DNA of 34,590 nucleotides from Thermoplasmatota archaeon (lineage in GTDB: Archaea; Thermoplasmatota; Poseidoniia; Poseidoniales; Poseidoniaceae), in NCBI GenBank assembly GCA_030830875.1, contig JAURMD010000058.1:1-34590 (forward strand). The letters are read 5' to 3'. Below, in pieces: positions 4,325 through 34,514 of the stretch (positions within the stretch are counted from its first letter, which is position 1; each line of letters opens with the position of its first letter). The translations under genes and the position numbers were made by a program. The notes beneath the pieces are model-generated. The model did not search any database. It saw only the letters and a program-made list of their open reading frames with translations, and was not told the DNA's origin.

Positions 4325-4388
4325 GCCCAGCACAGGCCGAGGTTGATAGAGGAGGAGGCACTCCTTCCGAGAGGAGGTGGACGAAGGC

Positions 4389-5351
4389 ATGGACCCCTAC
4401 AAGATGGTCATCGCTGTGACCAATCAGAAGGGTGGTTGTGCCAAGACCACCACAGCGGTGAACCTGGCCGCGGCGCTCGCTCGTGGCTACGAGCGAATGG
4501 GGCTTCCTCCTGCCAAGGTGCTCCTCATCGACCTTGACCCGCAAGGGAATTGCGCGACATCGTTCGGTATTGAGAAAAAGCGCATCAAAAAGACAGCCTA
4601 CGATCTTTTGACCAACGATCTGGGTGAAGCGTTGCCGTTGATGGAGGATTACCTGCTCGACCCACAGGACCTCACGAACGCAATGAGGAACGCGTTCATG
4701 CTACGAAATGAAAAGCAGCGCCCACCGACCTCACTCACCACGGAGAACCTCTGGCTTCTTCCGAGCGACATCCACCTCTCCGGTGCAGAAATCGAACTTT
4801 CCCATAAGATTGGACGGGAAACCCGCCTACGTGAGGCCCTCGCACCGATTGTTGACAAGTTCGACTACATCATCATCGATACCCCTCCCTCGCTCGGCCT
4901 GCTTTCCATCAACGCCTTGAGTGCCGCAAACTGGGTGGTCGCACCTGTTCAGGCAGAATACTATTCTTTGGAAGGCTTCAGCATGATGATGAACTCGATT
5001 CAAATGATTCAACGAAGGATCAACCGCAACCTGAAATTCTTCGGGGTCGTGATGACGATGGTTGATGCTCGGTCTAAACTTTCAAGGCACGTCGTAGATC
5101 AAGTGACCCTCAAAATGCCCAACACCTTGTTCAACACATCCATTCGAAGGCTGGTGAACGTCGCTGAAGCGCCTTGGTCAGGAGCCCCTACCGTCCTGCT
5201 GAACAAGCCAAGCCCCAATGGCGCCGGTGCAGGATCGTTGGAATATTGGACCCTCGCAAAAGAGTTCCACGATCGGGTCCTCGCAATGCGGAACCAATTC
5301 GGCGTGACCGAACCGAATCGAGTGCTGCTGGAATCCCAAGGTCGCCGGTGA
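4389..5351 (+). CDS. ParA/Soj-family deviant Walker-A ATPase (long form with internal insert and C-terminal extension)
   Basis: Motifs VIAVTNQKGGCAKTTTAVNLAAALA (KGGxxKT), LLIDLDPQGN, LLPSDIHLSGAEIEL, YIIIDTPPSLG and PVQAEYYSLEG are present. The region between DLDPQGN and LLPS is about 25 aa longer than in typical Soj. The start could be 4377 (GTG), 4389 or 4404. Confidence 0.85.
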   Translation: MDPYKMVIAVTNQKGGCAKTTTAVNLAAALARGYERMGLPPAKVLLIDLDPQGNCATSFGIEKKRIKKTAYDLLTNDLGEALPLMEDYLLDPQDLTNAMRNAFMLRNEKQRPPTSLTTENLWLLPSDIHLSGAEIELSHKIGRETRLREALAPIVDKFDYIIIDTPPSLGLLSINALSAANWVVAPVQAEYYSLEGFSMMMNSIQMIQRRINRNLKFFGVVMTMVDARSKLSRHVVDQVTLKMPNTLFNTSIRRLVNVAEAPWSGAPTVLLNKPSPNGAGAGSLEYWTLAKEFHDRVLAMRNQFGVTEPNRVLLESQGRR

Positions 5352-5952: not shown

Positions 5953-8340
5953 TCAGTCCTCGGCCTGCTTTGCCAGCCATTGGTGTCCGTAGTGTACCCA
6001 CTGCTCCTCGGTCCAGCCCTCGGGAAGTCCTGACTCCGGAACGGGTGGAGCGCTCGAGGGTGTTGCTTCCTCCTCAGGTAGGGGGGACGGCTCAGCAGGC
6101 GCTCGTTCCTCCTCAGCTTCGATCGCGGAGAACGCTTCTGTAGCCTCATCCTCGGGTGGGGTCGAGGGTGATTCAGGATCGCCGACGGGTTTCGATGCCT
6201 CTGACTCCATCGGGTCATCTTGCCAAAGGGCGTCCTCCTCCACACCGCCTCGTGCGGAGAGGCCTGCATGCCCGGTCAACGCTTCATCGGCGATGCTGTC
6301 GCCCTCGCCAAATCCAACGAAGGTCTTCTGCACCGCTGAGGCGGATAAGGCCCGCTTCTTGGACGTGGCAGACACCGTCAAGATCGCCGCGGTCATCCCA
6401 ACAAAAACGAGACCTGCAAGCATCGCAACCTGTTTGACTAGGCGAACGTCGAAGCCGCGAGCCCCTGCACCGTTGGCCACAGTGGCGTTCCAGTACGTGT
6501 ATGTCATTCGGCCGCGTTCTGATTCGTTTAGGGTTGAGAGGTAGTCCTGATACTCGACGCTGCGGATGCCAAGGCAGATGTCCCTGACATCGTCGAAGGC
6601 AAGTCGGCAATGGTCCTCGATGGTGGCGACCAAGGCGTTTGTATCGTTGTAATCCGTGCGTTGGCCGACCCCGTCTCCGTCTTGATCAAGGTGCTCGGTG
6701 GGATTGTCTGCCATGCCGTCGCCGACTTCGGATGCATCGGCCCACCCATCTCCGTCTTCATCTGGGCAACCAAACATGGCTTCAGACGTGTAGGTCGTGA
6801 CCTCCGCAATCACGGGAACCAAGGCCTGAATCGAAGCACCGGGCACCGTTGGACACGCATCAGGACGAACGCCATCCTGTGCATCACCATAGCCGTCACC
6901 GTCGCTGTCCGTCCACTGCGTACGCTCGTTGGGGAAGGCATCTGCGCCGTTGGCGACCGTCCATCCCTCATCTGGATCAGACCACCCGTCGAGGTCGCGG
7001 TCCGTGCAACCGCGTCGATCGTTTGTTGAGAATCCATTTGACGTGGGGCAATCGTCCGGCCGGTACCCAGCCGGGTTGTCGCCGTATCCATCACGGTCCT
7101 CGTCGGCCCATTGCGTTGGGTCTTCTGGAAAGACGTCCCCTTCAGGATCGTCGTCGTTGTCACCAACACCATCGCCGTCTGCATCCAACCATTGGTTTGG
7201 ATCGTCGGGGAAGGCATCGGGCATCGTTCCATCGGCTTCATCGCCGTAACCGTCCCCGTCACGGTCGGACCACTGCGAAGGATCATTCGGGAAAGCGTCC
7301 CCGTCGGTCGCGTCAGCATTGTCGCCGTATCCGTCTCCATCACCATCGGAGGATTGGTCAGCGTTGTTCGGGAACGCATCTTGGGCATCGGCGATTCCAT
7401 CGCCGTCCGAGTCAACGTCAAGCAGCCGAACACGTGTGCTTGAGGACGTGGTGCTTACGAGGTAGAGGCTCCCGTCTTCGTTGACGGTCACGGCAAGCAC
7501 GGAGCCCGTGGCTTGGAACGAGCCGATGATGCTGAGGGAACTGTCCACATGCCTCACGTGTCCATTCTGGTGACCTACATACGCTCCAAATCCTCCATCG
7601 AGGGAAATCGAAGTCACCGGCGTCGTGCTGCTCGACACGAAACCCCCCTGCCACGTCGTCGTGCTGTAGCGATGAACGGTACCGTCAGCGAGCCCAATCC
7701 AGAGGATCAGGCCATCCTCAACAAGGACCTTTACGGCCCCGCCCAGTCCAGTGATAAGGTCGTCCTGTGTTCCGTCGTCAGCGTGGATGAGCACGGTTCC
7801 GTCAAAGCCTCCCGTGAGGATTCGTCCATCGTCAAGCACGAGGAAGGAGGCCACCCCCCCGTTCATGACCGTCGTTCGCGCCCCTGAGGCTCCGAATTGG
7901 TCGTATTCGACGGCCTGACGGACACCGCCGTTGTGAACCAACCACAGGTCACCACCCGCGTCCCAATCGATGTGCTCGACGGGGTCAACCGTTGGGATGT
8001 CACGAACCACTTCATTGGAAGCGACCGAGAGGACCGTCGCGCCGTCGTCGTGGCCGACTGCTACGAGGCCCGCCGCAGCGTCAAAGCGTATGGTGTTCAC
8101 GCTCACGTTCGCATCGAGTTGTTTGGCCTTCTGGAGCACTCCAGCGACCCATTGATGCTCAACGATGGTACCAGAAGCATCGACGGTCAGCACGCCACCA
8201 TCGCCAAGGTCGTACCAAGCCATGACGCGGCTGTCGTTGTGAATTTCTCCTCCGTCAATCAAAGAGGCGGTGGCGGTCGAGGTCAACAACAGAAGCAGCA
8301 CGAAGCCCGCCACAAGCGAACGACGGTGAACCATGTCCAT
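5953..8340 (-). CDS. type-I membrane protein: signal peptide, DG-rich beta-propeller, thrombospondin-type-3 (DxDxDGxxD) Ca-binding repeats, one TM helix, acidic cytoplasmic tail
   Basis: The signal peptide is MDMVHRRSLVAGFVLLLLLTSTATA. At least six blade-like units carry G..DG(T/H)V motifs (res ~30-305). Nine DxDGDG(Y/V/W)(G/A)D units span res 308-565. The TM helix is VAMLAGLVFVGMTAAILTVSA (res 637-657). A 138-aa D/E/P-rich tail follows. Confidence 0.85.
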   Translation of the reverse strand: MDMVHRRSLVAGFVLLLLLTSTATASLIDGGEIHNDSRVMAWYDLGDGGVLTVDASGTIVEHQWVAGVLQKAKQLDANVSVNTIRFDAAAGLVAVGHDDGATVLSVASNEVVRDIPTVDPVEHIDWDAGGDLWLVHNGGVRQAVEYDQFGASGARTTVMNGGVASFLVLDDGRILTGGFDGTVLIHADDGTQDDLITGLGGAVKVLVEDGLILWIGLADGTVHRYSTTTWQGGFVSSSTTPVTSISLDGGFGAYVGHQNGHVRHVDSSLSIIGSFQATGSVLAVTVNEDGSLYLVSTTSSSTRVRLLDVDSDGDGIADAQDAFPNNADQSSDGDGDGYGDNADATDGDAFPNDPSQWSDRDGDGYGDEADGTMPDAFPDDPNQWLDADGDGVGDNDDDPEGDVFPEDPTQWADEDRDGYGDNPAGYRPDDCPTSNGFSTNDRRGCTDRDLDGWSDPDEGWTVANGADAFPNERTQWTDSDGDGYGDAQDGVRPDACPTVPGASIQALVPVIAEVTTYTSEAMFGCPDEDGDGWADASEVGDGMADNPTEHLDQDGDGVGQRTDYNDTNALVATIEDHCRLAFDDVRDICLGIRSVEYQDYLSTLNESERGRMTYTYWNATVANGAGARGFDVRLVKQVAMLAGLVFVGMTAAILTVSATSKKRALSASAVQKTFVGFGEGDSIADEALTGHAGLSARGGVEEDALWQDDPMESEASKPVGDPESPSTPPEDEATEAFSAIEAEEERAPAEPSPLPEEEATPSSAPPVPESGLPEGWTEEQWVHYGHQWLAKQAED
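6646..7419 (-). repeat. in-frame tandem coding repeats (TSP3-like D-A-F-P-x-D-P-x-Q-W-x-D-x-D-G-D-G-Y-G-D units)
   Basis: Five copies of the (D)(A/V)FPxxxxQWxD linker and nine DxDGDG loops are visible in the translation. This produces an obvious periodicity of GAYGG/GTCNCC strings in the DNA. Confidence 0.8.
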
Positions 8341-8373: not shown

Positions 8374-10935
8374 TCAGGCGTCGTCCGATGGTTCCTCGGA
8401 GGTCGCAGAGGGGAGGCGCAGGGGGCGCAGTGTGTGCACCGGTTGCAAGACCGTCGGAACCTGATCGGCGGCGACGCCGAGCACTGGCATGGCGGGCTTC
8501 AACCGTGCCGTGGCGGCGGGACCTCCAGCGGGCTGCATGGTTCGGATGGGTTGCAGGACTGGAGCATCAATCGGGATCGCATCGATGGTCGCATCGGGTT
8601 GAACCTTTGCTTCTTGGATGTCAACCTCAACGGTCGAATCAAGAACGCCTTGGACTTCCTCCATCATGTCCTCAAGCAGTTCCGCTTCAAGTTCGTCGGA
8701 CACCGCCATCATCTGGTCTTCAATGGAACCAGGAACTTCGGGTTCGGCCACAAGCTCGACCACGTCGACCTCGGTCTCGGATGTTTCAACGTCTGAAACC
8801 TCCACCTCAGGCTCGGGCATGTGAACGTCTGGAACCTCCACCTCAAGCACGGAGGCAGGGGGATCGAGTTCCGTCGCATGCTCCAAGGTTTCGAGGGCGT
8901 TCCCGACCGGTTCGCGCACAGGAGCGACGACCGGTGACTTGACCTGCTTCACGGGCTTGAAGATCGGTACCGGAGCAGAGGGGGCAAGGGTGCGAACCGT
9001 TGAGGTGGGGGCGCGCATTCCGGCGAGGCCCATCCGCGCAGGTTGCGCTTCGGCCGCCTGAGCAAGGGCCGTTAACGACGAACGACCAGCCGATGCGCCA
9101 AGGGCGTCGGGCCGTGCTCCGAGCGTACTGGCGTCTGCGGTTGCACCGAGGCCACCAACGCTTTGACCGGATATCGAGGAGAGCCACTGCTGCCTCTTGT
9201 CCATGCGTGCATCCGTGTCCTGAAGGCGAGCGAACTCGGCCTCTCGCTCTGCAAGGCGATCCTCTTCGCTGGCGACTTCACCTTCCACTTGCGAGGTGAT
9301 GCTCTCGCGCATGCGTTCCTCGGCCATGGCCTTGAATTCGTCCATCTTCTTGGAGAGCCCGGCTATACGGTCGCGTATTTCTGCACGCTTCAGCCCAAGT
9401 TGGCCCTCGATTTCTGCACGGATCCGTGCTTCCTTTCGACGCACGTCGATAAGCGCCTTGTTGCGCATGATTTCCTCACGCTTGTCCAACTGGCGCTCAA
9501 GTTGCGTGGCCACCTCGTCCATCTTCCGTTCTCGGAACGCGTTGAGACGTTCCTCCATGTCGAGTTCGAGTTCAAGCACCGTTTCCTCCTTGAGCAGGTC
9601 AAGGTCGGTGTCCCACGACAGCCGTTCATTGCGAAGGCTCGAATCCACCTCGGAGAGGATCGCTTTGCGTGCTGCAGCTTCACGGCTCTGGAATTCGAGT
9701 TCAAGTCGTTCGGTCCATTCCGTTCGCTTCGCCGCGTACTGCTCTTCGAGTTCAGCACGAATCTCTGCTTCTCGCTCGTAGCGGAACCGGGCCAACCGAT
9801 TCTGAATCTCGGATTCTCGCGCTGCTTGATAACGAGCGTAATCGTCCTCGTTCCGCTGTTCGAGGTCGGCTTCAACCTGAAGACGGAGCGCTTGCTCTAC
9901 CTCCTCCACTGCGTTGCCGTAGGTCAAATCGTAGCGCTCACGGAGGCGTGATTTTCGGTCCGCCAGTCGTTCGGAGAACTGCTGTTGGAGTTGAACCTCC
10001 ACCTCCCTTCGAAGTTCGTCGCGTCGACGTGCGATGGAGAGTTCAACGTCTTCTCGCATTCGAGCCTCAAGCGCCTCGGTCTCCCGGCGAAGGCGCTGTT
10101 CAAGTTCCTCCTGAATTTCGACCGCCAGGTTCGCCTCAAGCCGTTGGCTCCGGCGAGCGTATTCGGCACGAAGCGCCGCTTCACGCAGGCTCAGGCGCTG
10201 GCGAAGTTGTTGTTCAAGCCTCGTGCGGATGCCATGCCGCAGTTGGGATTCGCGCTCCGCAAGTTGCGCGTCTTGCTCATCCCGAAGGCGGGTGAGTTCG
10301 GCATCTTCCAAGGCAACAAAGCGCTGATTCATCTCCTCCTGAAGTTCCTCTTCGAAGGCCTGAATCCGTCGATGGAGGCGCTGGCGGTGCTCAAGATCAA
10401 GGCGTTGCCGCATCAGCTCCACACGCTGCTGATGCTCCTGCTCGAGCTGTTGGCGAAGGTCTTCGGCGAGTCGGTCGCGCTCCTCTTGCATTCGTCGATC
10501 GGTTTCCACTTCGAAACGCTGACGAAGGACCTCCAGTTCTCGTGAGAGCCGAGCCTCATATTCGTCACGCAAACGTGCTTCTTCGCGGGCAAAGGCCTCA
10601 CGACCTTCCTGAGCAAGCTCGGTCTCCATCGCTTCACGAAGTTCACGTTCAACCTCGGTGAGGGTTCGCTCACGATGCAGTTCCAAACTCGTCGCGAGGT
10701 TGGCTTGTTGGGCCTGCACGCGTTCTCGTAGTTCCGAATACCGAAGGCGACGTTCTCGCTTGAGATCGGAACGTAGGCGGTCTTCCGCACGGTAGCGCGC
10801 ACTCACACCAGCCTCGTCGTCGGTCGTCGTCGACGCCGCCCGAGTGAATTGGCCGCGAAGGGCGGCGAGGCTTCGCCGATCGTCCCCAGAAGCGAGGCGC
10901 CGGGGGAAAGGGCCCTCTGCATCGTTCACGACCAT
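8374..10935 (-). CDS. 853-aa charged coiled-coil / single-alpha-helix-like protein with A/G/S/P linker and acidic C-terminal region
   Basis: Residues ~46-585 are almost exclusively E/R/Q/L/A/D with no Pro and rare Gly (for example ELEQRLRRETEALEARMREDVELSIARRRDELRREVEVQLQQQF). Residues 586-685 are rich in A/G/S/P. Residues 686-775 are acidic, followed by a P/V/Q-rich end. There is no TM helix, signal peptide or enzymatic motif. The call is by composition only. Confidence 0.8.
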   Translation of the reverse strand: MVVNDAEGPFPRRLASGDDRRSLAALRGQFTRAASTTTDDEAGVSARYRAEDRLRSDLKRERRLRYSELRERVQAQQANLATSLELHRERTLTEVERELREAMETELAQEGREAFAREEARLRDEYEARLSRELEVLRQRFEVETDRRMQEERDRLAEDLRQQLEQEHQQRVELMRQRLDLEHRQRLHRRIQAFEEELQEEMNQRFVALEDAELTRLRDEQDAQLAERESQLRHGIRTRLEQQLRQRLSLREAALRAEYARRSQRLEANLAVEIQEELEQRLRRETEALEARMREDVELSIARRRDELRREVEVQLQQQFSERLADRKSRLRERYDLTYGNAVEEVEQALRLQVEADLEQRNEDDYARYQAARESEIQNRLARFRYEREAEIRAELEEQYAAKRTEWTERLELEFQSREAAARKAILSEVDSSLRNERLSWDTDLDLLKEETVLELELDMEERLNAFRERKMDEVATQLERQLDKREEIMRNKALIDVRRKEARIRAEIEGQLGLKRAEIRDRIAGLSKKMDEFKAMAEERMRESITSQVEGEVASEEDRLAEREAEFARLQDTDARMDKRQQWLSSISGQSVGGLGATADASTLGARPDALGASAGRSSLTALAQAAEAQPARMGLAGMRAPTSTVRTLAPSAPVPIFKPVKQVKSPVVAPVREPVGNALETLEHATELDPPASVLEVEVPDVHMPEPEVEVSDVETSETEVDVVELVAEPEVPGSIEDQMMAVSDELEAELLEDMMEEVQGVLDSTVEVDIQEAKVQPDATIDAIPIDAPVLQPIRTMQPAGGPAATARLKPAMPVLGVAADQVPTVLQPVHTLRPLRLPSATSEEPSDDA

Positions 10936-11051: not shown

Positions 11052-11444
11052 TCAGAAATTGATGGCAAATCCAGTGTCGCAGGCAGGGCAGGAGATTTCC
11101 CTTCGTCCCGGCCGGCGGTTCATGCGCAGGCGACGGTCGCAACTCGGGCAAGCCACTTCGATCTTCGCCTGCTTCGGCGTGATGAGAAACTCTTCGCTGC
11201 AGGAGCCGCATCGGAGCAGGGCAGGGCGGTCTTCAACACCGGCAACCAAGACTTTGCTGCAACCTGGACAGGCGACCTTCTCTTCAGCCCACGCCCGGCG
11301 CGTCCCGGGATGATCAACACGCACCCGCGCATCGCACAACACACACGTCAGCTCACCCAAACCCATGGGAAGCATCCCCTTGCATCGGGGACAACTGAGG
11401 ACAGGGGCCTCAACGGAGGATTCGACCTCCTTTCGCTCGTCCAT
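11052..11444 (-). CDS. triplicated zinc-ribbon protein (six CxxC pairs)
   Basis: From the ATG at 11444 the CxxC pairs are C18/C21, C34/C37, C59/C62, C79/C82, C99/C102 and C119/C122. That gives three ribbon units spaced about 40 residues apart. The longer track ORF (start 11522) would overlap the ATPase 3' end by 47 nt. Confidence 0.7.
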   Translation of the reverse strand: MDERKEVESSVEAPVLSCPRCKGMLPMGLGELTCVLCDARVRVDHPGTRRAWAEEKVACPGCSKVLVAGVEDRPALLRCGSCSEEFLITPKQAKIEVACPSCDRRLRMNRRPGRREISCPACDTGFAINF

Positions 11445-11475
11445 GCAGAGAGCATGAGGTTCCCCCTCTTGGAGT

Positions 11476-14118
11476 TCACGACGACCAACGCGCAGCAACG
11501 AGGCGCAACGAGATTCGAACATCGTCCATCAAGGCCTTGAACGTGCCTCGAAGGAGGTCGGCCCACCCGTCCGAACCTGCAAGGCGGGCTCCGTTCAGGA
11601 TGACGACGATCACCGACATCTCGTGCACAAGGACGCCGACCCACAATTGATCGTACCACCCGTTGATCACTGCGAAGACGAGCACGACGGTCACGCCGAT
11701 GGAGAACATCAGGTTGAATGCTAACGTACGCTGAGCGGATCGTGCCATCTGAACGAGGGTCGAGATCATCCGGGGATCATCGCCGGGGATGAGCACGTCC
11801 GCCGCATCGAGGTTGACTTGTTCCCCTGTGCCGACCGCTACCCCGACGTCTGCCCTTGCGAGGGCTCCAGCATCGTTGAAGCCGTCACCTACCATCATGG
11901 TGACGTGGGTCTGACCACGCTCTTCCACGAAGCGAACCTTTTGTTCAGGAGATAGTCCGCCGTGCGCCGCTCCCGCCGGCATTCCAACTTTCTTCGCAAA
12001 AGCGTCGACGGCCGATTGGAGGTCGCCAGAGAGGATTTCGACGTTCACGCCTTGCCGATACAGCGCCTGAACGAGGCCATCTGCTCCTTCCCGGCCATCG
12101 TCATGAACGAAGGTCAGGAGAGCGTGTGCCTCCGTCCCTCGGCACAGCACGCTCACGCCGTGACCGGATTCGCTCGCTTTCCGAAGGCCCTCTTCTAATT
12201 CGTCGCACAAACTCACGCCCTTCGGCAAGGAATCGGGTCGATGCAAACCCACGTCATCACCGCGGTATCGCCCAACCACGCCAGCGTTCACGTCGCGTAG
12301 GTCACTCACTGTTGTGGGATCGATGCCTTCGGAGGCAAGCAGGTCCTGTACGGCCAGCGCATAGGGATGCGACGAGCCCGCTTCCAATCCACCTACGAGG
12401 CGAAGCACGGCCTCACGTCGCCTTCCCTTCGCAAGGTGGACTTCGCCTACGGTTGGCCTTCCGCTCGTCAACGTCCCTGTTTTGTCCAGCAGCACGTGGT
12501 CCACCTTGGCCATCCGTTCCATCGCCTGTCCACCGGTCACAATGGCGCCGAGATGCGCAGACCGGGCGAGCACGGCGGCGTGCGGCACAGGCGCAGCCAG
12601 CAGCAACGCACAGGGGCAGGCAACCACCCAAAGCAGGAGCATCAATTTCCAGTTCGTGCGGTCGACGAACCACCAGATGGCGACGCTTCCGAACAGCACC
12701 AGGGGGACCCAGATGGCGGTGAAGCGCTCGATGGACCCTTGCAGTCGAGGTGGCTCCTCTCGGAAGGTGTGCACGGCCTCAATGAGGCCAGCGAGACGGG
12801 TGCCGTCTCCCGTTGCTGTCACCTCAACCTCGACGGGACCCCTGTGGAGCACAAGTCCGGCGCTGAGGTCATCGCCAACCTGAACGTCGACAGGCACGGA
12901 TTCGCCCGTCAGTGGTGCCGTGTCAAGGCTCCCGCTACCTTCGACAATCCGACCGTCGGCTGGGATCAACTCACCAGAGCGAATCTGGAGCCGGTCCCCG
13001 ACACGCACCGCATCGATGGGAACGTCTTCCCAGTCATGAGGGGAAGCAAGGTGAGGCGTCGTCATGGTGGGGGCGGATTCCGTAGCGAGCGTGAGCCGAA
13101 CGCCCTTCCCGATGCGCTTGGGCGGGGCCGTCGACCGCCGCGCCGTTCGTGGAAGGCGGTCGAGGCCCCCTTGCATGGCTTCGCGGGCACGAACAAGGGC
13201 ATCCCCCTCGAGGTGTTGGGTGAACGCCACAAGAATCACAACGATGAGCGCCTCTTCCCACATCCCGAGGATGACCGCCCCGAACACAGCCAACGAGGTC
13301 AGCACCTGAAATCCGACCTGACGTTGACGAAGCCCTGCAACGGCCTCAGACACCATTTCAGCACCTCCTGCTACGACCCCCATCAACGAAACAACAGCCA
13401 CGAACAGCGGACCTGCTCCCACCGCCTCTAGCAAGAGCACCAACGGAAGGATCAACGTCGCGACCGTGCCTCCTACGAGGCGCCGCTGGTCGGGGCGAAG
13501 GCGCTCTGAAGACGTCGCCCGATACACAGCAGAACGCCCAAGCAAACGGCTGATTGCTTCGTCTCGGTCACGGATGAGACCGGAGGGGGCGTCAGGCACG
13601 AGTTGGAGCAGCACACGATCATCGCGCGTCACCTCTGCGTCGAGCACTCCGGGTTGACGACGAAGCAAACGATCGACTCGGGACACGGGAATTCCGTGCC
13701 TGGTCGCCAATTCCCGTGCGGATACACCCTTCAACTCCTGATGCCTCACGTCAGGCGCGTGCCCAAGCGACCTCAGCACACGAGCAACCTCAGCCACCGA
13801 GCCAAGAGCGAGGTCGACCTCAACCCGAACTTCACCGCTTGTCGGAGAAACGATGGTGGACCCCACCTGCTCAAGGTGTCCGAGTGCGCGCGTAGCTTTG
13901 GAGGCGCAATCGGGACAATCCATACCGACCAGAGGCCATGCCATGATGTGGGTGCCCGATGCGTCGAGCAAAATTTCAGCGTCCAGCACGTCCATGGGAA
14001 CGGATGGCGTTTCGCTCGGTGCGCTGGATACGGCATGGGGAGCAAGAGAAGGCCCAGGTTCAATCGCCGGGCCGGTGGACGTTCCAATGGCGATGAAGAC
14101 CTCGTTTTCCTCGCCCAT
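11476..14118 (-). CDS. P1B-type heavy-metal-translocating P-type ATPase
   Basis: It has an N-terminal HMA domain GMDCPDCASKATRAL, a TM CPC motif (VVACPCALLLA), the phosphorylation site DKTGTLT, the SSHPYA (HP) motif and the hinge MVGDGFNDAGALARADVGVAVG. Confidence 0.92.
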   Translation of the reverse strand: MGEENEVFIAIGTSTGPAIEPGPSLAPHAVSSAPSETPSVPMDVLDAEILLDASGTHIMAWPLVGMDCPDCASKATRALGHLEQVGSTIVSPTSGEVRVEVDLALGSVAEVARVLRSLGHAPDVRHQELKGVSARELATRHGIPVSRVDRLLRRQPGVLDAEVTRDDRVLLQLVPDAPSGLIRDRDEAISRLLGRSAVYRATSSERLRPDQRRLVGGTVATLILPLVLLLEAVGAGPLFVAVVSLMGVVAGGAEMVSEAVAGLRQRQVGFQVLTSLAVFGAVILGMWEEALIVVILVAFTQHLEGDALVRAREAMQGGLDRLPRTARRSTAPPKRIGKGVRLTLATESAPTMTTPHLASPHDWEDVPIDAVRVGDRLQIRSGELIPADGRIVEGSGSLDTAPLTGESVPVDVQVGDDLSAGLVLHRGPVEVEVTATGDGTRLAGLIEAVHTFREEPPRLQGSIERFTAIWVPLVLFGSVAIWWFVDRTNWKLMLLLWVVACPCALLLAAPVPHAAVLARSAHLGAIVTGGQAMERMAKVDHVLLDKTGTLTSGRPTVGEVHLAKGRRREAVLRLVGGLEAGSSHPYALAVQDLLASEGIDPTTVSDLRDVNAGVVGRYRGDDVGLHRPDSLPKGVSLCDELEEGLRKASESGHGVSVLCRGTEAHALLTFVHDDGREGADGLVQALYRQGVNVEILSGDLQSAVDAFAKKVGMPAGAAHGGLSPEQKVRFVEERGQTHVTMMVGDGFNDAGALARADVGVAVGTGEQVNLDAADVLIPGDDPRMISTLVQMARSAQRTLAFNLMFSIGVTVVLVFAVINGWYDQLWVGVLVHEMSVIVVILNGARLAGSDGWADLLRGTFKALMDDVRISLRLVAARWSS

Positions 14119-15250: not shown

Positions 15251-18200
15251 TCATTCTTCCTCGGAGAACGGAGGTGGCGCTGGTCGAGATGGCGGGGTGT
15301 CCGATGGGCGTTGAGCGTTGGCGAGCCAGAGGCTGACCACCGCCAGCACGACCGCGATCGCCCCAAGCCCTACCCATGCAGCGCCTTGCCCTTCGCGGGA
15401 GGTGGAGGCTACGGACACGTCAGCCAATGGAACCGGAACGTCAACGGCACCGACATCGAGCGTCATTCGAAGGCCAAGGTCGCCTTCACGCCACGCTTCC
15501 GCACTCCAAACCAGACGCTGGCGCTCGCCCGGTTCCAACCAGACTGAAGCCTCATTGAGCAACTGACCATCGTCGTCAAACATGCGGACGGTCACGTTTC
15601 CTGCCAGCACGCCTGCATTTGCCACTTCGAAGGCCACATCGATCATATCACCGACCTGAGGCCGGTAGGGTGCGGCCACCAGGGAACTCAAGACCGGTTC
15701 AAACGCCACCCAACGCATCGTAACAGGAATCGGTTCAATGGATGTACCTTGCCCGACAAGGGGCCTTCCTGAGGCATCGGCCGCACTGAACCATAGCTGC
15801 CATGCATCGCCGCTCCGAAGGTCGAATTCGACGGTGGGGGTCATGTTCAACATCGCAGCGTGACGAGTTGAGGCGCCATCGATGGTGACGAACTCAAGCG
15901 CTTGGAATCCCTTCGCTGCGTCCATCGCCCGTCCCTGCCGAAGCAAGACCCAATGGGCGACCACGCCTTCAACAATGAGGGACTCGATGTCCGTGACCGT
16001 CACCTCCACGGGGACGGCATCGAGGGCATCGCTGTCCACAGCGAGCGACCGGACACCACCTAGGTCAAGACGAGGGGCGTGTACATCGATGCTGACGTTC
16101 CACGACAAGGTCAGGTTGCCAAAGGACCATCCGTCGATCATCACCTCAAACTGGCCCGTGGTTCGAACCCATACGGAAGGGTCGAAGGCGATTCGGAGTT
16201 CTGGAGTTCCATCATCAGGTACGTCGATACTTCCGCCAGTTACCCGGGCGCCATCGGTCATCGACCATTCAAGGTTCACTGCACCAGGCAATTTCTGGGC
16301 TGGGAGCGTCGTCCCCTCATGGAACAGAGCCAAGCGAACATTCACCACATCACCTCGGTCGACATGGATCACGTCCTGCACAACGCCACCTGTCGGTGCG
16401 GTCGTGTCCACGATGTCCTCCAAGGAGAGCGTCACTTCGGGTCGGGCAGTCCATGCGAGTGGGGCAATTCGGCGCAAACCAAGGCCGAGGTCCTGCCCTT
16501 CGTCTCGCACCTGCAGGGACGGCTGGAAGGTGCCGTCCTCCAACCCGGCGACGAGGTCCCAACGAAGACGGAAGCCGACTTCAACCTCCCATGTCGAAGG
16601 ACGGGTCTGCAGGATGGTGACGTCGGGAGCTCCATGGAAGCAACCCGCATCGGCAGTCGTTTCGTTCGCTCGAGGGCGATGCACAACGACGCAGGATGCT
16701 TCATCGGCCCCAAGAAGGCCGAATTCGAAAGCATCGAGGCTTTCGATTCCGTTGGCGTCCACGAGGTCGAATCCAAAGACGTGCCTTGAGCCGGGGAAGA
16801 GGCGCCCGTTCACCGAATCCATTCGAAGGCGCTCGGTCGGCACCGACGTGGGGTACCGAGGTTCAAGACGCACTTCTGCAAGAGGGAGACCTGTTTTGCT
16901 GCCACCTCCGACGAGGGCTTGTCCTGCGATGTCTTCGCCGTTCACGACGAGACGGATTCGGCCAAGTGCACCGCCGTCCTCGATGACGTCTTCCGCGTCA
17001 ATCAACGGCAAGTCGAGTTCCACGACGGTGCGGCCTTCGGCGACGGGAACAACAACCGCAACCCACTCATTCTCGTCGCTCAATCCATCCCTGTTGGCGT
17101 CGTCCCTCGCCTCAAGCCACGTCCATACCGTCAGGGGTGAAGCGAATCCAAGATCGTCCTCCGCCATCAACACCAGCGCGACGTCGCTGTCCGCTGGCGC
17201 GACGTGCCCATCTGCAGGTTGGCGACCTCCCGGGTCAAGCACTTCAACGGACATCAACGTTGGAGGCGAAGCGTCATGCACGAGGGTGACGTTGGGCACT
17301 TGGCCGCGCAATTCGCACGTCAACGAAGGTGAGGCAATCGGCCCACAACGCTGCACTTCAATGCCAACCTGGAGGGAGGCGCCTCCAGCCACAGCAGTGG
17401 CTGCAGGAGACGTCAGGTTGGCGGTGAACCAACCCTCATCTTGCACGTCCACCGTCGAGCTGTCGCTCCACCCGCTTCCTTCGAGACGAACGAGAAGGCT
17501 CGCATCGTGGGCAGAAGGGAAGCGCTGAGCCAATCCTTCCATCCGGAGTCGACCCGTCACAGTGAGCGGTGTTTCAGGGGCCACTTCGAACGGCCACAAG
17601 GGCGAAGTCCAATCATGCAGTTGGCGCCCTCTGTCGTCCACCACGATGAGCACGTCAACCTCGAGGTCGTTTTCGACGTCGTTTCCGGTGACCGTCATTG
17701 AACGCTGCACCGGACCGGTGGCGAAACCGTCCTCATCCTGAGCCTCGGTCCACCAGATCAACTTCGCCACGTCATCAAAGGCCCAGGTGGAGGTCAACCG
17801 CCACTCGATCCGGCATGACGTTCTGTCGCACGACGAGGTGGACGTGGCCTCGAGTGCAGCGAAGCCTGCCCCTGCGTCCTGCCTGAAGACTGGCGTTGCC
17901 TCGTTCAGACGTTCCACATGAACGGTGCCGACCGCCGTTCCAACGTTGGGCCCAAAACTGAGCATCGCGGTGCGAAGGGCAGGCACCGAGGCGGCAGCAT
18001 CGCGTGGATCTTCCCGTCGATGCTCAGTGACCACCGTCACCGTTTGACCGGGGGTCCAACTTGTGACCGGTACCGCCACAATCTGTTCGTACAATCGGCT
18101 TTGGCTCTCAAGGTGGAGCGCGACGTCCACAGCACCTCGGTCGGTGCTGACCCACAGTTCAAGCGAATGCTGGGCCGATGGGAGAAGGGAACGCCTCGCC

Positions 18201-21200
18201 TCGATGGCCGCATCCACAACATCCAACGGAACTGGAATGTCCCGGGAGTCTGAAGCGTCCAGTGAAAGAAGGGCCGATGCCCCTACAATGCTGGCTGTGG
18301 TAGGCGACAGAGCGATGGTGCATTGTCGCGCACCGGCATGAGGCGCATTGACTGCTTGGATGCACTGCGCTGTTCCATCCACCAACACGGTCCCGTTCCG
18401 CATGGCTGTCATTGAACGCGAACCAAGGTGGTCCTCCACCTCCAACGTTGCGCCCTCACTGCTGAGATGGACCAAGGTTCTGTACGGTACCAACACGGCG
18501 TTTGATGACGGTGCTGCGTGCACCCACCACGCCAGAGCCACCGCTTCGGCATCGAGCTCCGATGAGGTCAACGTGTCCGAGGAGCCGTTCCACAGGAGGG
18601 ACGCGTCGGTCGCGTTGATGACGGCCGTGTACATCGTGGAGGCTCCCAAGTGCGGCCCATACCCAAGCGTGGTCGCGTCCAACAAAAGGTGGCTTTGGGC
18701 ATCGATACCGACTCGGAGCTCTTCAGCGGAGGCAAGGCAATCGACCTCCATTCGAACCTCACGAAGGGCATCGCCGGGAGCGAGGCGAGCGGCGACCGTA
18801 GGTCGAAGACGTAGGTCACTCCATGCCACATCGTAAACGCGCATGTCCGTTCCGTTGACCACGAGCGTTTCGACGCCACCGAAGGTCTGCAACGCACCTC
18901 CAACACCTTCGACAACAACACGCACAGCACGATGCGGGCAACGTGGATGCTCAAGGAAGTCGATGTCATGGTAGGCTCCGATGCCCAACGTCAGTCTCCC
19001 GTCCTGCGTGACCACCACAGCCGAAGGGGGATTTGTTCCAAGGTGCTGAGCGTCAATATGAACCACGCTACCGATGGTCAACCGCTCAAGGATGGGCGTG
19101 GTTTTCTCGTCAGCAGTGGTCATGTTCACACGCAGTTGCAACCATGGATAGGCCTGCGTGCCGAGGGTCACATGGACCGGGAGGCTGAGGTTCTGCCATC
19201 CTTCAATGTCGGCACCGGTAGCATCGAGGAGGTCGACACGTAACGTCGAAGAAGGGGGTATGCTGGCGTGCCCGTCGAGAACGCCCCAAAGGTCACCAAC
19301 AGGAGCACGAAGCAGGGACGAGCGCCACGTGCCTTGCTCAAGGAATCGGTCCACCTCGACGCCGACGTCGTCGAGGTACCATCCATCCTTTTCGATCCAC
19401 GTGTCGGAGAAGAACACGAAACGTGCTCGGAAATCTTGACCAGAGAGGTTGGAGACGTCCAGGGACGGTGCGTCAAAGGCCTGGCTTCGTGATGGGCAAC
19501 CACCAGAATGAATCGAACCATCAAAGAGCCCCTGGGTGTGGAGCGGTGAATAGGGGTTCAGGGTTGAACGGCCGTGGTGAAAAAGGGCGTTGTATGGAGG
19601 AAACCACCAGGTTGCCCCGTCGTCAATGGACAACTGCACAGCGCCTCCGTCCCAATCCGTTTCGGTGCAGACCCACGACCTGAAGGTGAACCGTGCACTC
19701 GCGTTCTCCGGGAGGCTGTAGGTCGGGGTGATAAGGTAGCCGAGGCTTTCCGCGGCATAGTCGCCGTCAAGCACGATGCCAACGCCTGAAGACCCGGATG
19801 CCCACGACATCGGACCTGACCCGGACGTTGTGTTGAGGCTGCCAACGGTCCATCCTGAACCACGGACGTGTTCAATCGACCAACCCCGAGGCACCATTTG
19901 ACCAGATTCGAACGAAGCGTTCCACCAGGTCGGGCCATGGGCACCGAGGGCGGTGGTCCACGTCCACTCGTTCGTCACGTTTCCTCCGCTGAGGTTGAAC
20001 CCAACGCCAAGCACAGGGGGAGATGTGAAGTTGCTCAGCCGACGCACGGTTTGGTTGGCTTGACCGGGGAGGGAGGTCACCTGAAGGTTGTCAATGGCCA
20101 TCCCCTCCCATCCGTCCGTCACACCTCCACCATGGTTCACGTTGGCATCGGTCAGGACACGGAAGGCAAGGATGGCGTTTGATGCGTTGGCCGAGGTAAA
20201 GGTCGCTGGAGGAAGGCTGTACGCGATGTCCACCCATTCGTTGGAGACTTGACTCAGCCAGGATCCTTGCCATACGAGACCATTCCCCGGAAGGCCTGGC
20301 GCCGCTGAAAGCAACGTCCAATTGGACCCTCCGTCAAGGCTCAGCAGGGTGGTCATGCCATCGTTCCAGCCACCCTCAAGGTCCCAATGTGCCAGAAATC
20401 CAACCTCTGCCGGAGCGGTGAGGTTGGACAGGTCGACATCCATGAGGAGCCAGCCGTCCGCGTTCGGGGCATAGTCCCCTGACAGATTGCCGTGAAACCA
20501 TGCACCGCTGGGGTCTCCTTGGTTGCTGATCCGAACATCGTCGAGGAGCCATGCGGACCTGTTTCCACTCGTGACTGAGGTTGCGAAACAAAATCGAAGT
20601 TGATACCATGACTCTCCACCGGTGAGCCGACCGTCCAATCGAAGGCTCTCCGAGACCCACGCCGAGGAGTCTGACGTCCAGCCAGCGGCCACCGTCGAAG
20701 GGTCAGGATCAAGGCCGTTGGCAAAGGTCCCATTGTTGAGGTCAGGGTAACCGTCGGTCGGAGGCAACACCAGCCATCCGGTGCTCTGGCTGGAGCGCCA
20801 TTCCATCCAACGAAGGTCGCCATCGAGCAAGTCGGCGGCGTGAGAGAACGAGACAGTATGGTTTCGAACCACGGCTGGGGCATCGATCTGAGGCGTGGCA
20901 TAGCACCCTGACATGTTGGCAACAAGTGGAACTTGACCGCCACCAAGCAAAAGAACCCGATCACCATCAATTGGCAAACTTGGAAGCGATGCTGCCACCG
21001 ATGAAGCGCTCAGGTTGTGGGACGACCACACCCGGTCGTGGGAGCCACCGGTCAACCATCCCGTCGGCATCAACACAGGTGTTTCGAAATCCTCCATGTC
21101 TTCGTCTGCACCCGGGGAAGCGAGGCTGAGTCGACCGCCTCGCAACAATCCATTGGTGGCTTCATGAAAGCCTGAAGAGAAACCGTTGCCGACATCGTTC

Positions 21201-21478
21201 GCGTACTGGCTTCCGTTGTCACCGATGGAGGTCCACACCGTGCCCACCTCCAGCACGCCTGAAGTCACGGTGTGGTTGTCGAGCACCGTCACCGTGGTGA
21301 CGTTGCTCGCGCTCACGCCCCCACCCCCTCCAAGGGGTGCGACCGTGACCACCGGAGAAGATGTGGTCGTGGTAGGGCCCATCGAGGCCGCGACCATCGG
21401 TGAGAAGGCCGGGAGGAGCAACAGGAACAGCATCACAGGGGCATGAGGACGTTGCAACATGGCCCTCACCAACCCCAC
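15251..21478 (-). CDS. giant (2075-aa) sequon-rich cell-surface protein with N-terminal signal peptide and C-terminal TM anchor
   Basis: The signal peptide is MLFLLLLPAFSPMVAASMG. Three jelly-roll-like modules end in GW-LDDV-type strands (SAWLLDDVRIS, GWEGMAIDNLQV, DGWYLDDVGVEV) and carry Asp-box-like SLDGGSNW and SIDDGATW. A long beta-rich middle section follows. A CARDB-like module (VAFEVANAGVLAGNVTVRMFDD...) precedes the TM helix AAWVGLGAIAVVLAVVSLWLA. The alternative start is 21460. Confidence 0.85.
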   Translation of the reverse strand: MGLVRAMLQRPHAPVMLFLLLLPAFSPMVAASMGPTTTTSSPVVTVAPLGGGGGVSASNVTTVTVLDNHTVTSGVLEVGTVWTSIGDNGSQYANDVGNGFSSGFHEATNGLLRGGRLSLASPGADEDMEDFETPVLMPTGWLTGGSHDRVWSSHNLSASSVAASLPSLPIDGDRVLLLGGGQVPLVANMSGCYATPQIDAPAVVRNHTVSFSHAADLLDGDLRWMEWRSSQSTGWLVLPPTDGYPDLNNGTFANGLDPDPSTVAAGWTSDSSAWVSESLRLDGRLTGGESWYQLRFCFATSVTSGNRSAWLLDDVRISNQGDPSGAWFHGNLSGDYAPNADGWLLMDVDLSNLTAPAEVGFLAHWDLEGGWNDGMTTLLSLDGGSNWTLLSAAPGLPGNGLVWQGSWLSQVSNEWVDIAYSLPPATFTSANASNAILAFRVLTDANVNHGGGVTDGWEGMAIDNLQVTSLPGQANQTVRRLSNFTSPPVLGVGFNLSGGNVTNEWTWTTALGAHGPTWWNASFESGQMVPRGWSIEHVRGSGWTVGSLNTTSGSGPMSWASGSSGVGIVLDGDYAAESLGYLITPTYSLPENASARFTFRSWVCTETDWDGGAVQLSIDDGATWWFPPYNALFHHGRSTLNPYSPLHTQGLFDGSIHSGGCPSRSQAFDAPSLDVSNLSGQDFRARFVFFSDTWIEKDGWYLDDVGVEVDRFLEQGTWRSSLLRAPVGDLWGVLDGHASIPPSSTLRVDLLDATGADIEGWQNLSLPVHVTLGTQAYPWLQLRVNMTTADEKTTPILERLTIGSVVHIDAQHLGTNPPSAVVVTQDGRLTLGIGAYHDIDFLEHPRCPHRAVRVVVEGVGGALQTFGGVETLVVNGTDMRVYDVAWSDLRLRPTVAARLAPGDALREVRMEVDCLASAEELRVGIDAQSHLLLDATTLGYGPHLGASTMYTAVINATDASLLWNGSSDTLTSSELDAEAVALAWWVHAAPSSNAVLVPYRTLVHLSSEGATLEVEDHLGSRSMTAMRNGTVLVDGTAQCIQAVNAPHAGARQCTIALSPTTASIVGASALLSLDASDSRDIPVPLDVVDAAIEARRSLLPSAQHSLELWVSTDRGAVDVALHLESQSRLYEQIVAVPVTSWTPGQTVTVVTEHRREDPRDAAASVPALRTAMLSFGPNVGTAVGTVHVERLNEATPVFRQDAGAGFAALEATSTSSCDRTSCRIEWRLTSTWAFDDVAKLIWWTEAQDEDGFATGPVQRSMTVTGNDVENDLEVDVLIVVDDRGRQLHDWTSPLWPFEVAPETPLTVTGRLRMEGLAQRFPSAHDASLLVRLEGSGWSDSSTVDVQDEGWFTANLTSPAATAVAGGASLQVGIEVQRCGPIASPSLTCELRGQVPNVTLVHDASPPTLMSVEVLDPGGRQPADGHVAPADSDVALVLMAEDDLGFASPLTVWTWLEARDDANRDGLSDENEWVAVVVPVAEGRTVVELDLPLIDAEDVIEDGGALGRIRLVVNGEDIAGQALVGGGSKTGLPLAEVRLEPRYPTSVPTERLRMDSVNGRLFPGSRHVFGFDLVDANGIESLDAFEFGLLGADEASCVVVHRPRANETTADAGCFHGAPDVTILQTRPSTWEVEVGFRLRWDLVAGLEDGTFQPSLQVRDEGQDLGLGLRRIAPLAWTARPEVTLSLEDIVDTTAPTGGVVQDVIHVDRGDVVNVRLALFHEGTTLPAQKLPGAVNLEWSMTDGARVTGGSIDVPDDGTPELRIAFDPSVWVRTTGQFEVMIDGWSFGNLTLSWNVSIDVHAPRLDLGGVRSLAVDSDALDAVPVEVTVTDIESLIVEGVVAHWVLLRQGRAMDAAKGFQALEFVTIDGASTRHAAMLNMTPTVEFDLRSGDAWQLWFSAADASGRPLVGQGTSIEPIPVTMRWVAFEPVLSSLVAAPYRPQVGDMIDVAFEVANAGVLAGNVTVRMFDDDGQLLNEASVWLEPGERQRLVWSAEAWREGDLGLRMTLDVGAVDVPVPLADVSVASTSREGQGAAWVGLGAIAVVLAVVSLWLANAQRPSDTPPSRPAPPPFSEEE

Positions 21479-33719: not shown

Positions 33720-34514
33720 TCACCCCTTCGTCAATCCCCAGCGGCGGCCGAGGGTTTGGGCGATTCTGAGGTGGTCTTGACCACCGTTCGACCGTGGCGC
33801 ATGCACATGGATCGGTTCACCTTCGCTTGTGGCTTCAGCGAGCCGGATGTTCCGACGGATGGGGGGTTCGATCACGGCGTCACCAAGGTGCTCTCGGAGT
33901 TGCCCGGCAATCTGGTTGTTGAGGAGGGTGGGGGCGTGCATGGTCATCAGGACACCGTCCACACCAAGCCTTGGGTTCAATCTCAACCGAACCTGCTCGA
34001 TGGTCCTCAGGAGCATCGCGATGCCCTCCAACGCGAAGTATTCCGTCTGCACGGGGATGACCACCCCATCGGCGGCGCACATGGCGTTCACGGCGAGCAA
34101 GCCTAGGTTGGGAGGGGTATCGACCAGCACGATGTCGTAATGTGGAAGCAACGGCGCCAATCCTTCTGCAAGCCTGGATTCGCGACCGAGTTCAGCAATG
34201 AGCACATCATCAATCCCGACCAATCGACGGTCCCCGACGATGAGGTGCAGGTTGGCGACCGACGTCGCATACCTGCATGCACCGGCCGATTCAGGTTCAA
34301 GCAAGAGGTCCCGCGTGCTGCGCACGACGTCGGCCTTTCGGATGCCGAGGCCTGTTGCACAATTTCCTTGGGCATCAAGGTCGACAATCAACACACGGCT
34401 GCCGGCCTGTGCGAGGGCGGCAGCCACGTTGATCACCGTGGTGGTTTTTCCCACACCGCCCTTCTGATTCATCACGGCCACCACACGTGCGCGCTCACGC
34501 GTGAGAGGAGCCAT
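33720..34514 (-). CDS. ParA/Soj-family ATPase (canonical ~260-aa form)
   Basis: Motifs VVAVMNQKGGVGKTTTVINVAAALA, LIVDLDAQGN, IVLVDTPPNLG and PVQTEYFALEG are present. Confidence 0.88.
   Translation of the reverse strand: MAPLTRERARVVAVMNQKGGVGKTTTVINVAAALAQAGSRVLIVDLDAQGNCATGLGIRKADVVRSTRDLLLEPESAGACRYATSVANLHLIVGDRRLVGIDDVLIAELGRESRLAEGLAPLLPHYDIVLVDTPPNLGLLAVNAMCAADGVVIPVQTEYFALEGIAMLLRTIEQVRLRLNPRLGVDGVLMTMHAPTLLNNQIAGQLREHLGDAVIEPPIRRNIRLAEATSEGEPIHVHAPRSNGGQDHLRIAQTLGRRWGLTKG

Follow-up and report, generated by a model that had tools for sequence, protein, structure and literature searches.

We analysed positions 1 to 34,590 of contig JAURMD010000058.1 (assembly GCA_030830875.1), from a Thermoplasmatota archaeon of the family Poseidoniaceae, order Poseidoniales; this stretch of 34,590 nucleotides (nt) is referred to below as the window. 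Its minus strand carries a gene of 853 codons plus stop, whose product (here, the rod protein) consists of a short head, a very long charged rod and a tail that is predicted to be disordered. The gene stands between those of a triple zinc-ribbon protein and of a type-I membrane protein with a Trp-rich C-terminal module, and the coordinates of all these features are collected in Table 1. A reading of the sequence alone (the original prediction) had proposed that residues 46-585 of the rod protein form an E/R-rich helix of exceptional length, either a coiled coil or a single alpha-helix (SAH), without proline and with few glycines.

Table 1. Features of the rod gene and of its flanking genes. 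Positions refer to the window. AF2, AlphaFold2; pLDDT, predicted local distance difference test score; ORF, open reading frame; TM, transmembrane; aa, amino acids.
Feature	Position	Strand	Basis and remarks
Trp-rich C-terminal module PP.P..GLP.GWT.EQW..YG..WL of the membrane protein	5956..6051	(-)	Kept in 9 long-form orthologues
Type-I membrane protein gene, 795 aa, 33 nt after the rod stop	5953..8340	(-)	Pfam WD40-like match, TM scan
Rod protein gene	8374..10935	(-)	ORF and translation; 853 aa plus stop; head, rod, tail
Tail, residues 586-853	8377..9180	(-)	Acidic, A/V/P/E-rich, predicted disordered; pLDDT <50
Helical rod, residues 46-585	9181..10800	(-)	Composition, AF2 helices, near-absence of indels
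Most conserved block, residues 483-545, KREEIMRNKALIDVR...AEIE.QLG.KRAEIRDR	9301..9489	(-)	C-terminal end of the array; column entropy
Strict nonadecad array, residues 84-501	9433..10686	(-)	22 consecutive 19-residue repeats; hydrophobics at 1, 5, 9, 13, 16
Head, residues 1-45	10801..10935	(-)	Non-helical; conserved motif SLAALR.QFT; AF2 pLDDT <50 for residues 1-40
Triple zinc-ribbon gene, 156 aa, upstream of the rod gene	11052..11522	(-)	Pfam Zn_ribbon_6 and DZR matches

The composition of the rod, whose residues 46-585 are encoded exactly by nt 9181-10800, agrees with this description. E (19.3%), R (18.1%), L (12.8%), A (10.4%), Q (8.0%) and D (5.7%) predominate, charged residues make up 46% of the rod, and glycine occurs only seven times within it. 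Proline is absent between residues 12 and 608 of the protein. A scan for TM segments and signals found neither a TM segment nor a signal peptide in the rod protein.

The periodicity of the rod was analysed by Fourier transformation of the positions of the large hydrophobic residues (LIVMFYW), and the values were compared with those of shuffled sequences. A single sharp peak is found at 3.80 residues, with a power of 5.8 against a shuffle 95th percentile of 1.45, and there is essentially no power at 3.5, 3.6 or 3.67. The phase of this hydrophobic seam is constant from about residue 58 to residue 440. When residues 84-501 are written in rows of 19, the hydrophobics fall at positions 1, 5, 9, (13) and 16 without any insertion or deletion, and 78 of the 110 seam positions are filled. 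The aromatic punctuation to which the original prediction had drawn attention belongs to the same pattern: 15 of the 18 F/Y/W residues between 84 and 501 occupy the five seam positions (binomial p = 7e-7), and the strings LRDEY, LRAEY and LRERY are spaced by 7x19 and 4x19 residues. In a genome-wide control with 1667 ORFs of at least 200 aa, the rod protein is the top outlier at 3.80 (5.4; next best 2.87), while the SMC protein of the same genome has a period of 3.53. No second protein with a 3.8 period, which could serve as a hetero-partner, was found among the ORFs of at least 200 aa.

The seam is shared by the homologues. All 20 aligned full-length sequences, at 36-50% identity, peak at 3.80 (power 6.6-8.3), and a form at 28% identity peaks at 3.81; the power at 3.5 is 0.02-0.37 in all sequences, and both 3.5 and 3.67 are near zero in every segment and homologue inspected. 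In the family 19-mer profile the hydrophobic fraction is 0.94 at position 1, 0.67 at position 5, 0.73 at position 9, 0.45 at position 13 and 0.62 at position 16, and at most 0.27 elsewhere. The lags with the highest self-similarity are without exception multiples of 19, led by 76, 133 and 38. Column entropy is low (0.58-0.90) at the seam and its flanks (positions 4, 8, 12, 16, 1, 5, 9, 13 and 17), whereas the opposite face is variable (positions 3, 14, 15 and 18; entropy 1.6-1.8). Such a combination of a conserved seam face and a variable opposite face is the signature of a helix that packs on other helices. An origin of the array from tandem repeats at the DNA level was also considered and ruled out, the rod having no 57-nt repeat; the 19-residue repeat is conserved as structure and does not reflect recent DNA repeats.

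Sequence searches returned 58 close homologues and 91 cluster representatives (most of them fragments), all unnamed. The homologues are from Candidatus Poseidoniales/Poseidoniaceae (Marine Group II), among them the MG-II genome record CM001443.1, and the archaeal source assumed in the original prediction is thereby confirmed. The matching clusters of the ESM Atlas are also unnamed and lie in Thermoplasmatota; among its named clusters there was no match to residues 420-600. The rod gene is single-copy in whole genomes and is present in 38 of 41 relatives. One of the three relatives that at first gave no match (G030) carries a divergent form of 367 aa beside a zinc-ribbon gene; in G006 and G038 neither the rod gene nor the neighbouring zinc-ribbon gene was found, and therefore that locus was probably not assembled. 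A profile search detected the family in 41/41 genomes of one main Poseidoniales family and in 20/22 of the other (61/63 of the order), in 0/8 genomes of the sister family in the same class and in 0 of about 230 other Thermoplasmatota. A full-length copy at 64% identity in CAXRAI010000058.1 (L039), labelled as the bacterium 'Salinimicrobium sp.', probably comes from a mis-binned or mislabelled metagenome-assembled genome.

Comparison with described domains and structures gave no relative. Pfam, searched with the rod protein and 43 family members at E <= 1, yielded scattered chance matches only, NCBIfam yielded no meaningful match, a profile search of PDB sequences yielded chance matches to the low-complexity tail only, and Foldseek found no match of the AF2 model in the PDB. 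A globular region such as an ATPase head, which the original prediction feared to have missed, did not emerge from the Pfam, NCBIfam and PDB searches.

Insertions and deletions in the rod were counted in an alignment of 43 sequences and in 78 further species representatives (55-95% rod identity), leaving out one low-coverage assembly (L071) in which the ORF picked is not the rod (14% identity). The 43-sequence alignment contains one rod indel, a deletion of exactly 19 residues (about 326-344), and no indel occurs in residues 46-585 of any of the 78 further representatives. In total, the rod length is constant in more than 120 homologues, the most distant at 36% identity, apart from this single 19-residue deletion; the length of the rod is held fixed across Poseidoniales. 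The tail, on the other hand, ranges from 152 to 313 aa among the same 78 representatives. Between the rod protein and its nearest orthologues, head and tail show a non-synonymous divergence (pN) of 0.15-0.22, against 0.035-0.041 for the rod; synonymous sites are saturated. We conclude that these proteins are a real family, unannotated and under strong constraint, whose rod forms a 19/5 array of exceptional length.

In one group of genera with small genomes, the protein occurs naturally in a short form of 363-367 aa. The head motif, the C-terminal block up to residue 525 and the seam are retained, the last at 3.79 and without a break in phase; about 156 rod residues (209-364; 41 x 3.8) are missing, as is the entire tail. 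The deletion aligns as 156 residues, which is not a multiple of 19, and its boundaries are ambiguous within the repeats; therefore, we rely on the unbroken phase of the seam and not on this number.

The two ends of the rod are bordered by conserved elements. In the head, L23, L26, R27 and T31 are invariant or nearly so in the homologues. At the other end, the 19-residue register stops within block 483-545, where column entropy is the lowest of the protein (0.23 at residues 483-501) and the homologue alignment shows a run of invariant residues from K485 to R523. The tails contain several [TVI]L.P[VI] motifs, seen at the C-termini of the homologues. The tail-coding part also holds the sole DNA-level repeat of the rod gene, a 36-nt tandem repeat at 8768-8853 (2.4 copies, 78% match), which encodes the duplicated EVEVPDV / EVEVSDV. 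The other reading frames between 9163 and 10802, on both strands, contain six ORFs of 129-262 aa that overlap with the rod gene. As the original prediction anticipated, they can be attributed to the GAR/CGN/CTS codon bias of the rod gene, and their annotation is unwarranted. The sequencing runs listed as matching are DNA metagenomes only (estuary, marine and lagoon samples from 13 studies), with no RNA run among them.

The surroundings of the rod gene are conserved as well. The zinc-ribbon gene lies immediately upstream in every locus examined, short-form lineages included, and is present in 24/24 sampled Poseidoniales genomes vs 0/126 other Thermoplasmatota. Its product is a likely partner of the rod, and no neighbour is more constant. 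Downstream, the 795-aa membrane protein is predicted to comprise a signal peptide, a propeller-like region, Asp-rich calcium-type repeats, a TM segment at about residue 638 and a cytoplasmic tail. The order P-type ATPase, zinc-ribbon gene, rod gene and membrane-protein gene recurs in 9/9 loci with the long form of the rod, from three families; in all nine the rod and membrane-protein genes are on the same strand, separated by -4 to 84 nt, with 4-nt overlaps in two.

The Trp-rich module of the membrane protein is not confined to this locus. Seven single-pass proteins of this genome that have no other relationship, 142-1840 aa in size, end in it; the six outside the window are encoded on contigs C37, C54, C103, C137, C141 and C149 of the same assembly (G000). 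In each of the seven, the module is located 17-38 residues from the C-end, past the last predicted TM helix and a Pro/Ala-rich linker. Its DNA pattern was found in 64/64 Poseidoniales genomes, with 1-10 copies each, vs 0/237 other Thermoplasmatota, and the reversed pattern, used as a control, never gave a match.

Other genes of the region are reported here for completeness. Two ParA/MinD-type ATPase paralogues are encoded in the window, at 4377-5351 (+) and 33720-34514 (-); the former, which is followed here by two small ORFs of 84 and 87 aa, keeps its synteny with the rod block in each of the ten related loci inspected, and the latter has 33-39% identity to orthologues of the former. The minus strand also encodes, at 15251-21478, a 2075-aa protein with an InhA-like MAM domain; in three related loci the same place is occupied by distant relatives of it (24-26% identity). 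In two short-form lineages (L012:7308-9609 and L018:7223-9537), two extra genes are found between the short rod gene and the membrane-protein gene. One product, of 388 aa, is lipoprotein-like and has pentapeptide-like repeats besides a helical region rich in Q/S/L; the other, of about 375 aa, combines Asp-rich calcium-type repeats with a TM segment and a winged-helix-like C-terminal part.

Structure prediction is in line with the very long, essentially unbroken helix of the original prediction. For the protein of the window, AF2 places helices at residues 45-269 and 346-553 (pLDDT 80-94) and leaves head and tail disordered; for the short form, it returns one helix from residue 18 to 322 (305 residues, pLDDT 80-96), followed by a short break at the invariant KREEIMRNKALIDVR block. 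According to these models, the rod (about residues 45-553/585) is a continuous alpha-helix. A seam at 3.80 calls for right-handed winding: it would stay buried only if the helices wind round each other in that sense. Taking 3.63 vs 3.80, the calculated drift of the seam is 4.4 degrees per residue, vs 3.7 for heptads, and the twist would be roughly 20% tighter. The calculated pitch is about 81 residues (about 12 nm), with which the array would complete about five superhelical turns.

Coiled coils of this kind have an extreme periodicity. The right-handedness of pentadecads (3.75) equals the left-handedness of heptads, periodicity is estimated to reach its upper limit near 3.9, and no known case is more extreme than YadA, in which a 19/5 stretch occurs locally (PMC4786415). 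The nonadecad has been named, but only fragments are listed (PMC8016460). In repeats of this type, knobs-to-knobs layers shift the preference to higher oligomers, except where the cores are rich in alanine (PMC9858780). The literature that we searched contains general mentions only of nonadecad or 19-residue coiled coils and no long natural 19/5 array, and nothing relevant was found that links Poseidoniales with coiled coils. The rod would most likely be a right-handed 'nonadecad' coiled coil, homo-oligomeric and parallel, with a length of about 65-80 nm, for which a trimer or a tetramer is at least as likely as a dimer because of the large L/I/M core residues. Judging from the sequence, we consider it probable that the rod is an exceptionally long right-handed coiled coil of 19/5 periodicity. 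The coiled coil of the original prediction would thus survive, although not as a heptad one, since the power at 3.5 is about 0.

The arrangement of the helix along its length deserves discussion, as the chain might fold back on itself at about residues 300-345. This would give an antiparallel two-helix rod of about 35-40 nm, like SMC arms or fold-back hendecad rods, and would place the head next to the conserved C-terminal block. We keep the hairpin as the main rival because the only indel (about 326-344) and the segment missing from the short form (209-364) are both mid-rod; in addition, the AF2 model of the long form breaks at 270-345, a stretch of low confidence without helix, and the arms on either side are similar (225 and 208 residues). 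However, this stretch holds the seam at full strength, Gly/Pro remain below 3% family-wide in the rod centre, and the short form is modelled as a single helix with no turn; for these reasons, a continuous rod is favoured. Furthermore, G340 is not conserved, the phase of the seam continues through the array and across the short-form deletion, which a loop would not require, and the model (predicted template modelling score, pTM, 0.24) has no confident arm-to-arm packing. Overall, a folded rod appears unlikely.

The continuous helix could also use its seam on a different kind of partner. A seam wrapping right-handedly along another polymer, with one 19-residue repeat (about 2.8 nm) per subunit, would make the protein a tropomyosin- or nebulin-like ruler, as might be expected from the strict repeat number, the invariant length, the conservation of the surface all along the rod and the lack of a second 3.8-seam protein in the genome. 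This idea, which is purely conjectural, finds no candidate polymer linked to the locus, and the face that is conserved, being narrow and rich in leucine, looks like that of self-associating coiled coils; we give the idea little credit. Still less can be said for a monomer held by i/i+4 salt bridges, be it an ER/K SAH or a trichohyalin-like charged helix, both of which the original prediction had put forward. Opposite charges at i/i+4 are indeed enriched over shuffles, in a rod so rich in charge, but only modestly (z about 2.5-2.7). Against this, large hydrophobics account for 25% of the residues, with no stretch longer than 10 residues between them, and are disposed on one coherent seam conserved in all homologues, and neither TPH (PF13868) nor any other Pfam family matches; a monomeric helix is thus very improbable. 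The general E/R/L/Q composition, together with the commonness of long coiled coils, would be compatible with a left-handed heptad coiled coil (SMC-, Rad50- or myosin-like) or with an amphipathic 11-mer surface helix (apolipoprotein-, perilipin- or LEA-like), but the near-zero power at 3.5 and 3.67 makes either scarcely credible; the SMC of the genome behaves differently and the rod protein has no ATPase head. Moreover, a 3.8 seam turns about 5 times round a straight helix over the array, and therefore cannot stay on a flat surface. Neither a heptad nor a SAH signal having been found, the original prediction fails by the letter of its own test, and the 19/5 seam replaces both of its readings.

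As for function, the rod protein may best be explained as a soluble cytoplasmic head-rod-tail protein that would build a fixed-length right-handed coiled-coil scaffold under the membrane. The invariant length, the very strong purifying selection on surface and core and the conserved ends suggest contacts along the whole rod, which would mean a higher-order assembly or a ruler role, with features resembling intermediate-filament-like proteins. The pairing with the zinc-ribbon gene and the usual translational coupling to the gene of a module-tailed surface protein lead us to read it as a sub-membrane scaffold of Poseidoniales. The rod, alone or with its zinc-ribbon partner, is a candidate for the intracellular partner of the Trp-rich tail module, and the phyletic range of the zinc-ribbon gene and of the module is that of the rod.

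Several considerations weigh against this explanation. Any order-specific protein would have the same phyletic pattern, and the link with the membrane protein comes from gene order in related, non-independent genomes. In the short-form lineage, the adjacent membrane protein has no Trp module and the rod has no tail; 2-3 module-tagged proteins persist elsewhere in those genomes, and therefore the rod tail is not the only partner of the module. As to structure, oligomeric state, strand orientation and handedness are deduced from the periodicity, and the low-confidence stretch at 270-345 leaves room for a fold-back. We therefore lean only slightly towards the combination of coiled-coil structure and scaffold role; the scaffold or hub function, taken by itself, is put forward tentatively. 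Rather doubtful is the more specific proposal that rod and zinc-ribbon protein are the partner of the tail module and form a right-handed nonadecad lattice under the membrane, organising the cell surface of Marine Group II.

Some known systems share part of these properties. The YadA stalk (15/4, locally 19/5) resembles the rod in its extreme periodicity of 3.75-3.8, which forces strong right-handed supercoiling (PMC4786415; PMC8016460). However, YadA is a secreted, outer-membrane-anchored trimer of Proteobacteria, with 19/5 only local, whereas the rod has about 22 repeats (about 420 residues), is cytoplasmic and archaeal, and has no sequence relation to YadA, no signal peptide, no anchor and no Pfam YadA domain. 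Scy, FilP and crescentin are comparable in their head-rod-tail layout, very long non-heptad rod, conserved ends and presumed cytoplasmic structural role (PMC9858780). The layout of the rod protein is likewise that of intermediate-filament-like proteins, in that the rod length is fixed and the most conserved blocks are the N-terminal motif and residues 483-545. On the other hand, Scy and FilP have hendecads (3.67, almost untwisted), Ala-rich cores and a DivIVA-like N-terminal motif, while the rod protein has a period of 3.80 and Leu/Ile/Met cores, is archaeal and order-restricted, and matches neither intermediate-filament rods nor DivIVA in Pfam, NCBIfam or the PDB. ER/K helices and trichohyalin are similarly rich in E/R, with some i/i+4 charge pairing, but have no hydrophobic seam, which the rod has in every repeat. 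Tetrabrachion of Staphylothermus marinus is an extracellular S-layer tetramer with 11-residue repeats. Its stalk is an archaeal right-handed non-heptad coiled-coil rod of tens of nm, as is proposed for the rod protein, and it has been listed as a right-handed bundle with x-layers (PMC8016460). The rod differs in being cytoplasmic, in its 19-residue repeats and in its unrelated sequence.

If the structural reading is correct, this array would far exceed in length any other natural one of 19/5 periodicity, a value that the literature read places near the upper limit and reports only locally. Strongly right-handed supercoiling could then be studied in a natural example, on which heptad-trained prediction tools could also be tested. 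The rod protein is a single-copy, unannotated signature of nearly every genome searched of Poseidoniales, a still uncultured order that ranks among the most abundant archaea of the plankton. Given its fixed length, extreme conservation and linkage to a surface protein, it is a concrete candidate for an element of the cytoskeleton or one that organises the envelope, and the order-restricted cassette of zinc-ribbon neighbour and rod is proposed as the candidate partner of the tail module. Should the lattice prove true, archaea would have a cortical cytoskeleton of a new kind, based on a coiled-coil geometry so far reported in short stretches only.

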